IMG/VR virus record: IMGVR_UViG_2713896764_000001 | Span: 1 to 64,000 of that record | Strand: one strand, 5' to 3' | Origin: a virus | Taxonomy: Duplodnaviria; Caudoviricetes | DNA length: 64,000 nt | Shown: one piece after another, positions 1,400-9,394 of the stretch | Position numbering within the stretch: position 1 is the first letter of the stretch | Layout of the letters: the number at the start of each line of letters is the position of its first letter | Program-made: the position numbers and the translations under genes | The notes under the pieces: generated by a model | Told to the model about the DNA's origin: nothing | Database searches by the model: none | Seen by the model: the letters and a program-made list of their open reading frames with translations, nothing else

Positions 1400-2518
1400 T
1401 TAGTTTCTGATTGCACTCCAGCCTTTCAGCTTGAGCATCATGGCTAACTGGTTATCGAATTTTTTGGCACGGTAGTAAGCCGCGATGATTTTCTCTGGCG
1501 GTGCTTCGCCGGGATCTTCGTCCTCGCCCAATGCAGCAATTCGGACGTTAAAGCCGCAACCAATGAGCTTCTTGGCCGACGCAATCACAACGGGAATGGT
1601 TTTCTGCTCCGTATCCCACATTAGGACAATGTTCTTAAGTCCTTTGGCCTTGAGCTTTAAGAACGCCCCTATCTGGTCTTGGGCTGATTCTTCCAGTCCT
1701 CCGGACAAGTGCATACCAAACGTCCCTATTGGCTCTACAAACGGGAACAACGTTGGCTCGCTGAGTAGCGCTCGCTTAACTCCGATAACGTCAAACGCAC
1801 CCTCGCCAACGATTACCGTCTCTTTGCCAACGGCATTGTGTCCGTTGTATAGGTATCGACCGGAAGCAGAGAGTGTTTGTGGGAAGAGATACTTTCTGCG
1901 AGCCTCACCTGTCACGTCACGACCTTGGAACGTGGCAAGTTTGCCTTCAAGATCGTAAACAGGAATCATGACTCGCTTGGAAAAGTCTTGAGTTTTGCCC
2001 TCTTGCGCTTCGGAGTCCCAAAAGACATGAACGCCGGATTCAGACCAGCGTAAATCGAAATACTCACACAATGTCTTACTCAGTCCTCGGTTGAGCAAAT
2101 ATTCGGGCAGCGTCTCCATTTCCCTTGAGATATGAAGCGATGCTGGCAGGCGAATTTCTTGCAAAAGGTTAACGTCGGATTTGATTTCCGTTTTCACCTT
2201 TGGCATATAGCCCAGCTCTAAGCTAACTTGCTCGATATAATCAGCAAGTTCTCTCCCTCGCTTGTCTGTAAACGCCTGTAGAAAGCGGAATACGTTGTAT
2301 TGCTTGTCCTGCGGGTGTGAACCGTGAAAGCATACTCCCTGTCCTCGCATCGGATTGAAATACACTTTCCAAGAGTCTCCTCCGCACATCGGACAATGGC
2401 GGATATTCAGCTCTCGACCTGATTTGCCAGTAGTCACGCGATAATCAACGCCCTCCAAATCAAGCCAAGCCTCAAAATCAAGGCCATCAAGCATTTCTCT
2501 GATATCTTCAAATGCCAC
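1400..2518 (-). CDS. DNA primase (zinc finger + Toprim)
   Basis: CPMCGG...C zinc finger, RVMIPVYD...FQGR, VGEGAFD and MWDTE Toprim motifs; next to helicase. Confidence 0.9.
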   Translation of the reverse strand: MAFEDIREMLDGLDFEAWLDLEGVDYRVTTGKSGRELNIRHCPMCGGDSWKVYFNPMRGQGVCFHGSHPQDKQYNVFRFLQAFTDKRGRELADYIEQVSLELGYMPKVKTEIKSDVNLLQEIRLPASLHISREMETLPEYLLNRGLSKTLCEYFDLRWSESGVHVFWDSEAQEGKTQDFSKRVMIPVYDLEGKLATFQGRDVTGEARRKYLFPQTLSASGRYLYNGHNAVGKETVIVGEGAFDVIGVKRALLSEPTLFPFVEPIGTFGMHLSGGLEESAQDQIGAFLKLKAKGLKNIVLMWDTEQKTIPVVIASAKKLIGCGFNVRIAALGEDEDPGEAPPEKIIAAYYRAKKFDNQLAMMLKLKGWSAIRN

Positions 2519-2662: not shown

Positions 2663-4003
2663 TTAGAAAACATCCAGAACCTTATCGACAAACTTCATCT
2701 TATCGAGGTCTTGTTTAACGCGAACGGTAATATCGCCACGTTGGTTACGAGAAGCAGCAAGGAATAGTCGCGCCTCTCCCTTCGCTTTCTCTTCATCCGT
2801 TTTGTTGATTGAGATTGTTAAGTCGGCAATACGGATTTTTTCGATGTTATCCGCAACGTGCGTAATACCCGCTGTCTCCGAACCCATACCATCACGGTTA
2901 GTCTGTGTTGCGGTAAGCAGCGCGAAGTCTTCTTTGTCCGCCAGACCACGGAAGTCGGTATACATGTCCTTTTCGTCTGCGCGGCGATCGTTGGTCACAC
3001 GGTTTGAGCGAGCTAGGTCAAGGTAGTCCAACGCCACCATGTCAAACTTCACGCCTTTGGCTCGGAAGTCATGAATCAAGCGATTAAGCTCGTTCGGAGT
3101 GAAAGTGCCTGCCGGACGCTCAACGATGATCAGCTTCCCAACCCCGCCTGAGCGCTTAGCCAGAATAGCGGAGCGAACCGCCTCACGCGCTTTCACCAAG
3201 TCATCCATTGAGGTGTCCGAAACACGCGCATCCGCACGGTCCGAAATGATTCGCGCATGAACCTCAAGCGTGACATACAGAACGTTGTAGCCGGCATCGG
3301 AGGCAGCAATGGAGAAGTCACCCAAAGCAGTAGACTTACCCGCCTTTGCACCACCCATAATCAGCGTCATTTCGCGACGACCCCAGCCTTTGTGGTAAAG
3401 GATCGCATCCAGTGCGCGAATACCCGTGGTAATACCTGTCGGAACATCCTCGCCTTTCTCCAGAGCATCACGACGTTCAGTTCGAGTATCTACCTCTTCG
3501 TAGTAGTCGTAATAGTTGTTCGAGTCAGAAGCCCCTACCAGCATCGCTTTTTGAACGACCGCTACCGCACCCTCAAAGTCGCCCTTTTCTTTCAACTCAA
3601 CGGCTTTCATTAGGGCTTCGTCCAGCGCGTTATTACGGGCGAACGTGCTTACTTGGTCGAGCATGTATTTGCTGTCTGTCAAAGGTTCAGACAGAATTTC
3701 TTTGAGTGATACCAGCACATCCGGCTTCATTTCCTCACGGATGCGCTTTGACTCAATGGCCTTTTTCACCAGATCAACAAGCACCTTCTTACCTGGTGCC
3801 TGCGAGTAAAGGCGAAAATGCTTGTTTACGATCATCACGAGGCTGGCAACGGCTTTGTTCTCGAATTGCTCCGGAGAGACTAAGTCGTTTGTCATCGTCA
3901 GGAAGTTCGTATCACGGCAGTAATAGGCTGCCAAACGTAGCTGAAAACCTGAGTCAAACTTCTCTGAAAGCGGAACAGAAGTTACCTCAAACTCAGTTGT
4001 CAT
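2663..4003 (-). CDS. dnaB: replicative DNA helicase, DnaB-like (SF4)
   Basis: Walker A GGAKAGKST, VLYVTLE, ALDYLDL, TATQTNR motifs. Confidence 0.92.
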   Translation of the reverse strand: MTTEFEVTSVPLSEKFDSGFQLRLAAYYCRDTNFLTMTNDLVSPEQFENKAVASLVMIVNKHFRLYSQAPGKKVLVDLVKKAIESKRIREEMKPDVLVSLKEILSEPLTDSKYMLDQVSTFARNNALDEALMKAVELKEKGDFEGAVAVVQKAMLVGASDSNNYYDYYEEVDTRTERRDALEKGEDVPTGITTGIRALDAILYHKGWGRREMTLIMGGAKAGKSTALGDFSIAASDAGYNVLYVTLEVHARIISDRADARVSDTSMDDLVKAREAVRSAILAKRSGGVGKLIIVERPAGTFTPNELNRLIHDFRAKGVKFDMVALDYLDLARSNRVTNDRRADEKDMYTDFRGLADKEDFALLTATQTNRDGMGSETAGITHVADNIEKIRIADLTISINKTDEEKAKGEARLFLAASRNQRGDITVRVKQDLDKMKFVDKVLDVF

Positions 4004-4006
4004 GAA

Positions 4007-4312
4007 TTACCCCTCAATTACGTATGGCTGTTTTCTGCCGCTGCTTGGGGCAAGAAATTCCAAACCACGCATGGCGACCGTAACCAAGTCACTTGGGCTG
4101 ATAGTGCCGGTTGGCTGAAGCACGATTGCCGTTTCATCAAAAGACACTACTCGACCAAAGAAACTCGCACCGGATACCGTCGCGATCTCACACTCCACCT
4201 CATTGGTTTTTAGAAAGCCCAATCGACGCTCAATGTGTGAAGATGAACGGGTGGTCACAGCCATTGCAGGCTTGACGTTGCGGCGATTGCGAGTAGTTAA
4301 CTCAGTATTCAT
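4007..4312 (-). CDS. Hfq/Sm-like protein
   Basis: FLKTNEVECEIATVSGASFFGRVVSFDETAIVLQ matches the Hfq Sm1 pattern by eye. Confidence 0.6.
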   Translation of the reverse strand: MNTELTTRNRRNVKPAMAVTTRSSSHIERRLGFLKTNEVECEIATVSGASFFGRVVSFDETAIVLQPTGTISPSDLVTVAMRGLEFLAPSSGRKQPYVIEG

Positions 4313-4350
4313 GATTTGATTTCCTTGTTGCTAATTCATGTGCATTGCGT

Positions 4351-5109
4351 TTACAGATTCCATGATAATTGGAGCTTGTCGGCTGCCAATACTGTTGCCT
4401 CGGGGAAGTGCTTCATCGCTAGGTGACGAGGAATGGCCTCGTGTGTGTAGATGGCACTCCGCAGGGACAAGTCTTGGTTTGCCTCTCCGCGCATCTTGAT
4501 CTGTGCAATGACGAATTTTTGATATTCCTCTAGAACCGGACACTGGCAAAAGTTGGAAACCTTGAAGTAAGGCTCTTCTGATACCATTAGGCCAGTTCTC
4601 AGCTTACTCGCCAGTGCTTGCTTGAAGTTGTCAATCAGCTCGGCTTGGTATAGCTGTGCCGGAGTAGCCAGGTGCAATCGTCCTCGCCCTTCCGTATCCA
4701 TGATGATTGAGAAACAAAACAGATCGTAGGGTGCGCGTAGCTTGTCGGCCATCTGTCTTGCCTTCCACAGCGAGGTCACTGTCCGGCTAGACTGTTCCCA
4801 AATGGCTTTGCGCTTAATGCCTGTTCTGAATGGTGCGGATTTGTAATCCTCACGACCGCGCATCAACATCACTTGCGAGTAAGCCTTCATGTAGCACTCT
4901 GCAAAATACGCTGTAGCGTCGAGGGGATGTAGAAAGCGATAGTCATACCACTTACGAAAGAAAAGCTCACCATCGTCCTTACAGCGCGAAATCCCGACGA
5001 TTTTTGAAGTGATCTCGTCCTTGTCTCTCGCTGTTGTGTCGATGAGTGGTAAAAGTCGCTCGTTTTCCTCAAAAACGGCTTTTAAGTTTTTCAACTGATG
5101 CGGAAACAT
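4351..5109 (-). CDS. hypothetical protein heading the replication operon
   Basis: 252-aa ORF; 18-bp palindrome 4 bp upstream of the ATG. Confidence 0.75.
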   Translation of the reverse strand: MFPHQLKNLKAVFEENERLLPLIDTTARDKDEITSKIVGISRCKDDGELFFRKWYDYRFLHPLDATAYFAECYMKAYSQVMLMRGREDYKSAPFRTGIKRKAIWEQSSRTVTSLWKARQMADKLRAPYDLFCFSIIMDTEGRGRLHLATPAQLYQAELIDNFKQALASKLRTGLMVSEEPYFKVSNFCQCPVLEEYQKFVIAQIKMRGEANQDLSLRSAIYTHEAIPRHLAMKHFPEATVLAADKLQLSWNL

Positions 5110-5381: not shown

Positions 5382-5720
5382 ATGTGCCACCTGATATTGC
5401 TCCTTCCTATTTTAGCTCTACCATTATTCTGGCTGACCCCATTCTCGTTCGCTATACCGCTCTATTTCTTTATTGTTATCGTTTCCGCAGTCATCTACTG
5501 GCTTACGTATCGAGCGATGCACTTACCAATTGAAACAGGATCCGAAGCACTCCATCACCAAGTAGGTCAGGTAATCGGATATCAAAATGGCTTTTATCAG
5601 ATATCATTGAACAATGAATGTTGGAATGCCCTTTCAGATGAAGTGCTGCAACCTAGAGAACGGGTTGAGGTGAACTCTGTCCACGGTGTCACACTGAATG
5701 TCAAACGGATCTCAGGCTAA
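5382..5720 (+). CDS. NfeD-family membrane protein
   Basis: two N-terminal TM segments, then TG.E.L...GQV...G.Y.I.LNNECWNA.S...V.V.SV.G.TL.V OB-fold pattern. Confidence 0.8.
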   Translation: MCHLILLLPILALPLFWLTPFSFAIPLYFFIVIVSAVIYWLTYRAMHLPIETGSEALHHQVGQVIGYQNGFYQISLNNECWNALSDEVLQPRERVEVNSVHGVTLNVKRISG

Positions 5721-5777
5721 GCCCTTCAGGCAAGAGAATTGAGACAGTGTGCTTCCTAAAATCAGGAATCGCTAAAC

Positions 5778-6284
5778 ATGCCAAGACAATTTATCAAACA
5801 GCACTGCGGATGGTTACTAACGACTCTCATCCTAAGCGGCTGTGATGTATCCATCAATCACATGTATACATCAGTCGATAAAAGTCGCACCTATCCAACC
5901 AATGGTGAACAAATTTATTTCACTGGCCGGAATCAGTCAGGCAGCCAGATTATTTACCGAGGCGGTCATATGCATGCGCAGATGCATCTCACGGCATGTG
6001 CTGATTGCCATGGTATAAGGCGTGAAGGAGGTCAGCGCATGTATCCATTTTTTTGGCTGACAGCTCCTCCGCTAACAAGCGATGCCTTATTCGGCACGCA
6101 CGATGATGATCATGATGCTTATACCCTATCCAGCCTTAAAAGAGCTATCACAGCAGGTGTTGACCCATCCGGAGAGCAGTTGGATTCGACGATGCCCCGT
6201 TGGCAGATGAGTGAATCGGACTTAGAAGATTTGGTTGATTATCTTGCAGAAGGAACTTTGAAAACAGTAAAGCATGAGCAATAG
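5778..6284 (+). CDS. monoheme cytochrome c lipoprotein
   Basis: lipobox LSGC, CADCH heme motif, distal MPRW Met ligand. Confidence 0.85.
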   Translation: MPRQFIKQHCGWLLTTLILSGCDVSINHMYTSVDKSRTYPTNGEQIYFTGRNQSGSQIIYRGGHMHAQMHLTACADCHGIRREGGQRMYPFFWLTAPPLTSDALFGTHDDDHDAYTLSSLKRAITAGVDPSGEQLDSTMPRWQMSESDLEDLVDYLAEGTLKTVKHEQ

Positions 6285-6476
6285 AGGTTCAGCGTCTCGG
6301 TGGAAATTAGATATTTTTACCATTCTGCCATATATGAACCACATACCATGCGGAAAACCCACTAATATTGTAAGGGCTTAATCCGCATTTACAGACTTGG
6401 TAACACACAGCATCAGCCAAGGTTTTACCGAGACCAACCTGAAACACATCCATTTGCTGAAAAAAGGAGGCTTAGG

Positions 6477-6941
6477 ATGAGAACACACATCATGATCATC
6501 CCACTGGTGACGTTACTAAATTTAGCTGCCATCCATGATGTATCAGCTCAACAAGGCATGACTTGGCATGGGAGCGGTGGTTGGGGTCCCCACTCACCTT
6601 ACGGGATGATGTATAACAACCAGACTATGGAGGAAGCTAGCGGTGAAGTAGTGACCGTGGATAAAATCTCTATGATGCATCAGATGCAACAACAAGGGGT
6701 CCACCTGACAGTTAAAGCTGGTCAGGATACCCTCTCCGTTCATCTAGGTCCGGCTTGGTATCTTGAGAAACAGGATGTCAAAATCATGCCTGGAGACAAG
6801 GTGACTATTAAAGGATCCCGAATCACCTTTGACGATGAGCCAACGTTGATTGCCGCGGAAATTCGCAAGGGAGACCAAGTATTAATACTTCGGGATTCGG
6901 ACGGTATTCCTGTCTGGAGTGGTTGGCGACAACGACAGTAG
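6477..6941 (+). CDS. exported Met/His/Gly-rich OB-fold protein
   Basis: signal peptide (VSA-Q), GGAGG RBS, VHLGPAWY...GDKVTIKGS OB-fold pattern. Confidence 0.75.
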   Translation: MRTHIMIIPLVTLLNLAAIHDVSAQQGMTWHGSGGWGPHSPYGMMYNNQTMEEASGEVVTVDKISMMHQMQQQGVHLTVKAGQDTLSVHLGPAWYLEKQDVKIMPGDKVTIKGSRITFDDEPTLIAAEIRKGDQVLILRDSDGIPVWSGWRQRQ

Positions 6942-7049: not shown

Positions 7050-7082
7050 AAAAAGCCCGCAAACTTATAAGCTTGCGGGCTT
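7050..7082. terminator. probably bidirectional intrinsic terminator
   Basis: AAGCCCGCAA/TTGCGGGCTT stem between convergent units. Confidence 0.7.
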
Positions 7083-8456: not shown

Positions 8457-9140
8457 TCAAGCGACCTTGCCCTTGTCCGATGGCCTGATGCCAAAAATCA
8501 GCTCATCAACAAGGTCGTTCACTTCTGCCTCTGCCTTGAGATCACGGCAGTCGTCCGGCATTTCCAGCACTCCGCGCCCGTTTTCTTCTGAATCATCAAA
8601 AACGTTACGGTGCATTACCACGGTTTGAAGTGGGCTAAAGTCATATGACTCGCACACATACTTAGCATCCAAAATCCGCTTAACCTGCGTTGGCAGCGGG
8701 TTGCACTGGTTAATCAGCGTATTGATTTTAAGGTCAGGGTTATACTGCATACCGCGACCAAGCACTTCGTCAATCATCGGCAAGGCTTTCAAATCACGAC
8801 GCTTAGGGCGCAAAACCAAAAGAAAACGGTCGGCATTGATAATGGCCTCGCGCTGATAAGCGCCATCATAACCACCGGCATCACAAATGATGAAGTCGTA
8901 AAGAGGTCGGATAGACTTGATTAAGTCCTCTGCCGAACCGGTTGGGATGTAGCCGCTGATTTTCACCAGGTTAAGATGAGCGCGGCGTTCAACAAACCAC
9001 TCTTCGGTTGTCTTTTGTGGGTCTAAATCGACAAGAGCAACATTGTGCCCTCTCATTGCAAGGCACACAGCCATGTTCTGAGCGGTGCAAGACTTGCCCG
9101 TTCCGCCCTTTACAGAGCCTACAACGATCACTTCTGACAT
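8457..9140 (-). CDS. parA: ParA/ParF partition ATPase
   Basis: deviant Walker A KGGTGKS, VDLDPQ, IICDAGG; no N-terminal HTH (type Ib). Confidence 0.92.
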   Translation of the reverse strand: MSEVIVVGSVKGGTGKSCTAQNMAVCLAMRGHNVALVDLDPQKTTEEWFVERRAHLNLVKISGYIPTGSAEDLIKSIRPLYDFIICDAGGYDGAYQREAIINADRFLLVLRPKRRDLKALPMIDEVLGRGMQYNPDLKINTLINQCNPLPTQVKRILDAKYVCESYDFSPLQTVVMHRNVFDDSEENGRGVLEMPDDCRDLKAEAEVNDLVDELIFGIRPSDKGKVA

Positions 9141-9319: not shown

Positions 9320-9394
9320 TGGAGCAGGCAGCGGGACTCGAACCCGCGTCCTCAGCTTGGAAGGCTGAGATATTGGCCACTATACGATGCCTGC
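9320..9394 (-). tRNA. tRNA-Gly (anticodon TCC)
   Basis: GCAGGCA/TGCCTGC acceptor stem, CTCAGC-CTTCCAA-GCTGAG anticodon arm, GGTTCGAGTCC T-arm, encoded CCA. Confidence 0.95.

Follow-up and report, generated by a model that had tools for sequence, protein, structure and literature searches.

The gene at positions 4007-4312 of the window (the whole stretch of 64,000 nt analysed here) encodes a 101-aa protein, P0001, which, judged from homology and predicted fold, very probably belongs, in strongly diverged form, to the Hfq branch of the Sm superfamily and which stands directly ahead of the replicative helicase gene of an SSU5-like phage-plasmid or provirus of Photobacterium. P0001 is an altered form of a known yet uncharacterised class, the Hfq-like genes of mobile elements. 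Hfq ranks among the best-studied bacterial RNA regulators, and the roles of its mobile-element copies have so far been inferred. The same slot ahead of dnaB has repeatedly been used by Hfq-like genes in other phages, a recurrence that the original prediction, made from the sequence of the window, had missed.

The window belongs to an IMG/VR record of 93.7 kb that is classified as a provirus. The helicase it encodes shares 51-54% identity with those of Salmonella phage SSU5 and many SSU5-like phage-plasmids, and the element carries a ParA gene at 8457-9140. The 90%-identity cluster of P0001 includes a protein of Photobacterium ganghwense, all named relatives come from Photobacterium, and the family is present in only 3 of 400 sampled Vibrionaceae genomes. 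The replication module, with the signals in and around the Hfq-like gene, is laid out as follows.

4351-5109, minus strand: gene for the phrog_2500 protein (252 aa), a conserved neighbour 5' of the helicase gene in SSU5-like, Nickievirus and Rhizobium phages
4362-4389, minus strand: match to a sigma-70-like promoter (TTGGCA-16-TATCAT), within the final stretch of the phrog_2500 gene and just 5' of the Hfq-like gene
4320-4326, minus strand: Shine-Dalgarno-like AAGGAAA of the P0001 gene, ~9 nt 5' of the ATG (4312), as read from the sequence
4007-4312, minus strand: gene for the Hfq-like (Sm-fold) protein P0001, 101 aa plus stop, ATG start
4238-4312, minus strand: basic disordered N-tail of P0001, residues 1-25
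4046-4237, minus strand: Sm core of P0001, residues 26-89
4010-4045, minus strand: C-tail of P0001, residues 90-101
4010-4015, minus strand: GAGGGG, codons E100-G101 of P0001 and putative ribosome-binding site of dnaB, as read from the sequence
4007-4009: stop codon TAA of P0001, separated by 3 nt from the dnaB ATG (4001-4003)
3989-4009 and 4332-4352: arms of an imperfect inverted repeat, 21 nt, 76% complementary, with an exact 9-nt core TAATTCATG
2663-4003, minus strand: gene for the DnaB-like replicative helicase (446 aa; Pfam DnaB_C, phrog_19; 51% identity to the SSU5 helicase by tblastn)
1400-2518, minus strand: gene for the DnaG-type primase (372 aa; Pfam DNAG_N, phrog_47)

The Hfq-like open reading frame is a real gene: it is preceded by a ribosome-binding site of its own and evolves under purifying selection, with dN/dS values of 0.22 between the window gene and its homologue in a Photobacterium plasmid-like contig (L008), a comparison in which synonymous sites are nearly saturated, and 0.28 for an unsaturated pair of relatives within the family. 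Its location inside a helicase-primase operon, as originally proposed, holds, the phrog_2500 gene, the Hfq-like frame, the DnaB-like helicase gene and the primase gene all lying on the minus strand, with gaps of 38 nt between the phrog_2500 gene and the Hfq-like gene, 3 nt between the stop of the latter and the dnaB ATG, and 144 nt between dnaB and the primase gene. The Hfq-like gene and the replicative helicase gene of the element, on the same strand with a 3-nt spacer, are thus predicted to form one transcription unit. Translational coupling of the two genes is strongly supported by the reading of the junction, because the apparent dnaB ribosome-binding site, six bases ahead of the start, falls within the last codons of the P0001 gene; the C-terminal IEG of P0001 is retained in its two closest relatives, P0002 and P0003. 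Sigma-70-like matches are no more numerous in the region than expected by chance, and no iteron-like repeats were found near the replication module. The arms of the inverted repeat flank the Hfq-like frame, and the arm at 3989-4009 spans both its stop and the dnaB start codon; the repeat could allow distant parts of the mRNA to pair and so gate translation of dnaB, or could be due to chance.

The assignment of P0001 to the Hfq branch is based on concordant profile and structure comparisons, in every one of which Hfq is the best match. The only Pfam match of P0001 is Hfq (PF17209), at E 0.0055 and with 16.7 bits, below the 27-bit cut-off, and its score against TIGR02383 is 14.4 bits, short of the cut-off of 61.7. 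The same Pfam family is the sole one matched by the aligned members of the P0001 family, all 8 of which match it below the cut-off (best E 2.9e-5). Only six relatives of P0001 were returned when 1.84 billion representatives were searched exhaustively with HMMER, and a word-indexed profile search gave 13 clusters in all for the family. At E <= 10, the family profile matched 33 PDB sequences, every one of them an Hfq (best 8e-4), and comparison of the family with E. coli Hfq by hhalign yielded E 2.3e-5.

The AlphaFold2 model of P0001, a monomer predicted from a 7-sequence family alignment devoid of any Hfq, contains a helix (residues 26-36) and five strands (40-45, 50-58, 62-67, 77-80 and 84-89), that is, the N-terminal α-helix and the five strongly bent β-strands of the Sm fold; the core is predicted with pLDDT >90, whereas the N- and C-tails are disordered. 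In a Foldseek search of the PDB, the best 50 matches of the model were all Hfq, with target TM-scores of up to 0.90 and rmsd of 1.2-1.6 Å across ~65 residues of the model. An independent all-against-all VIA structure search placed Hfq chains at ranks 1-7 (Z 10.6-11.3), followed by designed small barrels, SmAP, LSm and YaeO at Z <= 9.3; SmAP, LSm and Sm chains scored Z 7-9 and YaeO Z 8.2. The neighbours in the ESM Atlas are clusters of Hfq_1, Gemin7 and DUF2642, of the Sm/Hfq clan. With Sm, LSm and SmAP among its structural neighbours, the predicted fold places P0001 in the Sm/LSm superfamily. The original prediction of a divergent Hfq/Sm-like protein, which had quoted residues 26-66 of P0001 as parallel to Hfq, is thus borne out by Pfam, the family profile, hhalign, the predicted Sm-like monomer fold, Foldseek and VIA alike.

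Other collections yielded little. Neither PHROGs nor PADLOC contains a match for P0001, and the Pfam family Phage_Hfq (PF23874) does not match it, one family member and the slot protein of an SSU5-like locus, L044, reaching only E 0.11 and 0.13, respectively, far under the cut-off. Phage and plasmid collections gave no match either by tblastn with P0001 or by megablast with the window DNA, and scans of IMG/VR (with P0001 or the family alignment) and of JGI metagenomes found no relative. When a canonical Hfq was used as the tblastn query, isolate phages gave 7 records, several of them not phage-like by name or record size; a canonical query therefore finds essentially no isolate phages, and the phage copies are all divergent.

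The extent of this divergence is evident from a MAFFT alignment with E. coli Hfq, the core of which is identical to that of the Hfq of Photobacterium genome G127. The Sm1 motif is kept, as had been noted from the sequence: G48, G53 and S57-F58-D59 of P0001 align with G29, G34 and S38-F39-D40 of Hfq and are invariant in the family. The alignment likewise confirms that AMRGL (residues 80-84) occupies the position of the Sm2 motif YKHAI. In the proximal pocket, Q8, Q41, F42, K56 and H57 of Hfq correspond to I27, E60, T61, M81 and R82, of which positions 61, 81 and 82 vary within the family; in the ARN site of the distal face, Y25, I30 and K31 correspond to A44, A49 and S50; and in the rim patch, R16 is kept as K35, with R17 and R19 corresponding to T36 and E38. 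Nearly all residues of the three RNA-contact surfaces being replaced, the alignment strongly supports their loss in P0001. What the family conserves is different: H26, R29, R30, L31, G32 and K35 of helix α1, with R29 and R30 standing earlier in the helix than the rim patch, as well as T45, S47, T78 and G83-L84-E85, are all invariant. The Sm core of P0001 is acidic (pI 4.8) and its 25-residue N-tail has a pI of 12; this basic tail is missing from the shorter relatives, and some family members are acidic overall.

Thus, P0001 resembles bacterial Hfq (PF17209; E. coli 3RER/1HK9, Thermotoga maritima 4Y91, Synechocystis 3HFO) in its N-terminal helix, five-stranded bent sheet and Sm1 G..G...SFD, but differs in the family-specific H-x2-RRLG-x2-K helix motif, the invariant GLE, the acidic core and the basic N-tail, and in being encoded by a mobile element within a helicase operon. 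By its sub-cut-off Pfam score, the AMRGL in place of YKHAI and its acidic core, P0001 is, at the level of sequence, not a canonical Hfq.

These replacements bear on two functions that had been proposed for the protein. A role as an RNA chaperone finds no support in the form in which it was put forward, Hfq RNA-surface residues being almost all replaced and the core acidic, and the suggestion that candidate structured RNAs in the window might serve as its partners fares no better: an Rfam search identified only a tRNA (tRNA-Gly), and the helicase-primase spacer folds no better than shuffled sequences (z -1.1). The second proposal, that P0001 enters the hexamers of host Hfq as a dominant-negative or modifying subunit and thereby disturbs host riboregulation, would draw on the fold common to both proteins and on the presence of a single canonical Hfq in the host. 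We regard it as very improbable, given that P0001 is only ~25% identical to the Photobacterium Hfq, that the β4-β5 strands of the ring interface differ (LVTVAMRGLEFLAP vs QMVYKHAISTVVP), and that neither the linkage to the helicase gene nor the plasmid cassettes described below would be explained.

Comparison of the slot between the phrog_2500 gene and dnaB across elements shows that it is mostly empty. In SSU5 and pCP102, 60-85 nt separate the flanking genes, the slot of Rhizobium phage RHph_X66 is empty as well, and no Pfam-Hfq match exists anywhere in these three records. Both flanking genes are present at 78 SSU5-like IMG/VR loci, and at 77 of these the distance between them is just 30-90 nt. 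The single filled locus, L044, carries a 76-aa slot gene, the product of which belongs to the P0001 family (hhalign probability 96.6%, E 6e-10; blastp 1e-12 to the L008 protein). The Hfq-like gene is thus, with strong support, an optional component of the replication module. The L044 protein (L044:2231-2461) also barely reaches the cut-off of Pfam FljA (Flag1_repress, PF03614), with 24.5 vs 24 bits over the N-terminal 64 profile positions, a hint that the N-terminal domain of FljA may itself be Sm/Hfq-like.

Outside the SSU5-like elements, all 6 Nickievirus phages of Pseudomonas syringae have a gene of the 89-aa class between the phrog_2500 homologue and dnaB, overlapping the helicase start. 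In Nican01, it was labelled hfq by the depositors, and gp117 of phage nickie is the best structural match to the P0001 model in BFVD. The Nickievirus proteins and their IMG/VR relatives resemble P0001 in being small Sm-fold proteins encoded in the same slot, overlapping or abutting the helicase start, but are much nearer to canonical Hfq: two IMG/VR relatives of the nickie protein exceed the Pfam Hfq cut-off (37.7 and 31.7 bits), and the proximal-pocket residues are largely kept, the nickie protein retaining Q at the position of Q8 and having Y at that of F42 and FKSSI in place of YKHAI. Their similarity to the P0001 family by hhalign is marginal (E 0.0019). In the Stenotrophomonas phages ANB28 and BUCTxx99, a 69-aa acidic gene product (pI 4.3 in ANB28) is encoded by a gene overlapping dnaB; its Sm-like signals are weak, and this slot, too, is probably occupied by an Hfq-like gene. 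Altogether, an Hfq-like gene occupies the same pre-dnaB position in Nickievirus, L016, L017 and L044, which strongly supports repeated use of the slot by such genes. Because the slot proteins of the separate lineages are no more similar to one another than to Hfq, the lineages may have a common origin followed by fast divergence, or the slot may have captured such genes repeatedly by independent insertion. In phage nickie, six small hypothetical ORFs lie between the helicase and primase genes (L005:5424-7249), so that the replication module tolerates many small insertions. In our literature search, no publication turned up on bacteriophage Hfq-like genes adjacent to dnaB, and the paper describing Nican01 makes no mention of its hfq gene.

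The nearest counterpart that our search found in the literature comes from archaea. Plasmids of Thermococcus and Methanocaldococcus have genes for Hfq-like proteins, most of them zinc-finger fusions, and in the Thermococcus plasmids these genes stand immediately 3' of helicase genes within the same transcription unit, for which a role in replication has been suggested (Krupovic et al., 2013; PMC3543421). Like P0001, these proteins are encoded by mobile elements in one transcription unit with a replicative helicase; unlike it, they are archaeal, are encoded 3' rather than 5' of the helicase gene, mostly carry the zinc finger as an N-terminal fusion and accompany a helicase of another family. 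The repeated placement of such genes beside replicative helicase genes, in the window element, in Nickievirus and on archaeal plasmids, suggests that Sm rings and DNA replication are linked in a way not covered by the textbook role of Hfq.

With these observations in mind, we tentatively favour the reading that P0001 forms a ring that binds single-stranded nucleic acid and serves as an optional accessory of the replication module, a plausible but far from assured function inferred from sequence and model. Co-transcribed and translationally coupled with the DnaB-type helicase, P0001 would assemble into an Hfq-like ring and bind single-stranded nucleic acid via a rewired basic surface on helix α1 (H26, R29, R30, K35), to which the basic disordered N-tail would add in the phage version. 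Candidate targets would include origin transcripts, RNA primers, single-stranded DNA at helicase loading or the mRNA of the helicase operon; a general role in matching sRNAs to mRNAs, like that of host Hfq, would not be expected. The recurrence of an Hfq-like gene directly before dnaB in other phages points to a role in the replication module, and the location of the closest relatives in maintenance regions of Photobacterium plasmids and islands (ParA, Rep_3, KfrA, resolvase, recombinases) counts in the same direction. Against this stands the fact that SSU5, pCP102, RHph_X66 and the 77 SSU5-like loci do without an Hfq-like slot gene; furthermore, the acidic Sm core, the acidic family members and the low pI of the ANB28 protein would fit a protein-binding role as well.

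The homology of P0001 to Hfq suggests another possibility, namely, post-transcriptional regulation of the kind exerted by Hfq or FljA, in which P0001, as an RNA-binding ring or oligomer, would either chaperone antisense or small RNAs of the element, as a helper of copy-number control, or repress a single mRNA, for example, the helicase-primase message. The retention of proximal-pocket residues in the Nickievirus slot proteins, some of which exceed the Pfam Hfq cut-off, is in line with such a function, as is the match of the L044 family member to the N-terminal part of FljA, a protein that blocks translation of fliC mRNA (PMC2652032). However, P0001 carries substitutions of the canonical residues of the proximal, distal and rim faces, which its family does not conserve, no candidate RNA partner emerged from Rfam or from folding of the spacer, and sRNA work of the Hfq type would not account for the constant linkage to helicase genes. 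As to FljA, only the L044 member reaches the cut-off, P0001 itself and the 7 other family members being without a match (none was found at E <= 10 in the record of the window or in these 8 proteins), and FljA is, unlike P0001, a protein of ~170-180 aa with a further C-terminal part. We therefore consider the regulator a possible but doubtful alternative. If P0001 turned out to be just another RNA binder, the gain would be a modest one in annotation, for about a dozen hypothetical proteins of Photobacterium.

Binding to protein rather than nucleic acid is what a further alternative entails: the target of the Sm ring would be the hexameric helicase itself, with the ring working as loader, clamp or inhibitor, by analogy with Rof/YaeO and Hfq acting on Rho. 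Rof/YaeO is an Sm-fold protein and a partner of the hexameric helicase Rho, and YaeO is among the structural neighbours of the P0001 model. Translational coupling would supply P0001 and DnaB in matched amounts, the order of an Sm-like gene before dnaB recurs, and the acidic core of P0001, along with the very acidic ANB28 protein, would suit a protein partner. Genes 38, 39 and 40 of phage SPP1 encode, in this order, an origin-binder, a loader and the helicase, and the succession of the phrog_2500 protein (~250 aa), a small protein and a DnaB-type helicase in the window resembles that arrangement. Yet helicases of the same length and with 51% identity work without P0001 in SSU5-like elements, and the closest relatives of P0001 are not encoded beside helicases. 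No match of P0001 to the known loaders (λ P, DnaC/DnaI, SPP1 G39P, T4 gp59 and DciA) was seen in Pfam, PHROGs or NCBIfam, which yielded only Hfq, and none of these loaders is among its listed structural neighbours in Foldseek and VIA. On balance, an action on the helicase appears unlikely.

The closest relatives of P0001, proteins of 75-77 aa with 45-56% identity, are encoded in three Photobacterium genomes (L008, L013 and L014), in each case directly 3' of a conserved gene for a protein of 405-420 aa (hereinafter, the 410-aa protein), which the Hfq-like gene overlaps in two of the three cases; a divergent gene for an HTH regulator stands 5' of the 410-aa gene. The partner genes are located as follows.

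L008:3743-4966: 410-aa partner gene, on a plasmid-like contig with ParA and KfrA
L013:6761-8014: 410-aa partner gene, on a chromosomal island that also encodes tyrosine recombinases, an SNF2 helicase and a C5-methylase
L014:6800-8056: 410-aa partner gene, on a plasmid with Rep_3, ParA and resolvase

This cassette shares with P0001 the family, the invariant residues, the host genus and the translational coupling to a neighbour, but the partner is the 410-aa protein instead of a helicase, and the basic N-tail is missing. The 410-aa family is restricted to Photobacterium and always followed by an Hfq-like gene. Its members have no Pfam, PHROG, NCBIfam, PADLOC or PDB sequence match, no Foldseek match and no profile likeness to the phrog_2500 protein or DnaB. 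In the AlphaFold2 model (pLDDT 81), the N-terminal part is helical and the C-terminal domain resembles the double-wing folds of YgaC, YjbR and T4 MotA-CTD (Z 9.2, 6.5 and 5.9, respectively). The possibility that the 410-aa protein is a plasmid Rep was rejected, the L014 plasmid carrying its own Rep_3 initiator. Since the Photobacterium relatives are coupled to this unrelated protein and not to a helicase, the family works in more than one context. On the L013 island, a GHKL-type ATPase (HATPase_c_3), the SNF2 helicase and an HTH-fused C5 cytosine methylase (L013:410-5288) adjoin large genes for tyrosine recombinases, and the group has the appearance of a defence island carried by an integrative element.

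Such travelling cassettes raise the question of whether the position ahead of dnaB has any meaning, or whether P0001 is an unrelated accessory gene, of defence, counter-defence or regulation, that settled in a permissive intergenic slot. Its patchy distribution, the movement of the Photobacterium relatives as a unit of HTH regulator, 410-aa gene and Hfq-like gene on plasmids and on the SNF2/C5-methylase/recombinase island, and the abundance of small ORFs in Nickievirus replication modules would all fit this view. It is nevertheless genes of the Sm/Hfq type, not of other folds, that fill the slot in no fewer than three or four divergent lineages; Hfq-like genes also stand beside helicases on archaeal plasmids (PMC3543421), and PADLOC gave no matches. 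A chance occupancy of the slot thus strikes us as quite improbable.

Returning to the favoured reading of an accessory of the replication module, one might extend it into a broader, admittedly speculative and on present evidence improbable proposal: the Sm/Hfq-fold rings that phages, phage-plasmids and archaeal plasmids encode next to their replicative helicases could constitute an unrecognised class of helicase cofactors, in which the six-fold ring would dock on the hexameric DnaB-type helicase, or hand single-stranded nucleic acid to it, for loading, priming hand-off or inhibition during maintenance of the plasmid state, the acidic-core form represented by P0001 having given up the RNA surfaces of Hfq for this purpose. 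As P0001 keeps the fold and appears to have lost the known RNA-binding residues, a phenotype or a partner would separate a replication-linked function from classical riboregulation.

Further features of the window are as follows. Between the replication and partition genes, three ORFs of 112, 168 and 154 aa on the opposite strand (5382-6941, plus strand) occupy a stretch of lower G+C content (0.42-0.46) and look like a cargo insertion. A strong hairpin resembling an intrinsic terminator is found at 7053-7082 (minus strand), with a 13-bp stem containing 7 G-C pairs, a 4-nt loop and a T-run, and a tRNA-Gly (TCC) gene at 9320-9394 (minus strand) adjoins the ParA/partition region.
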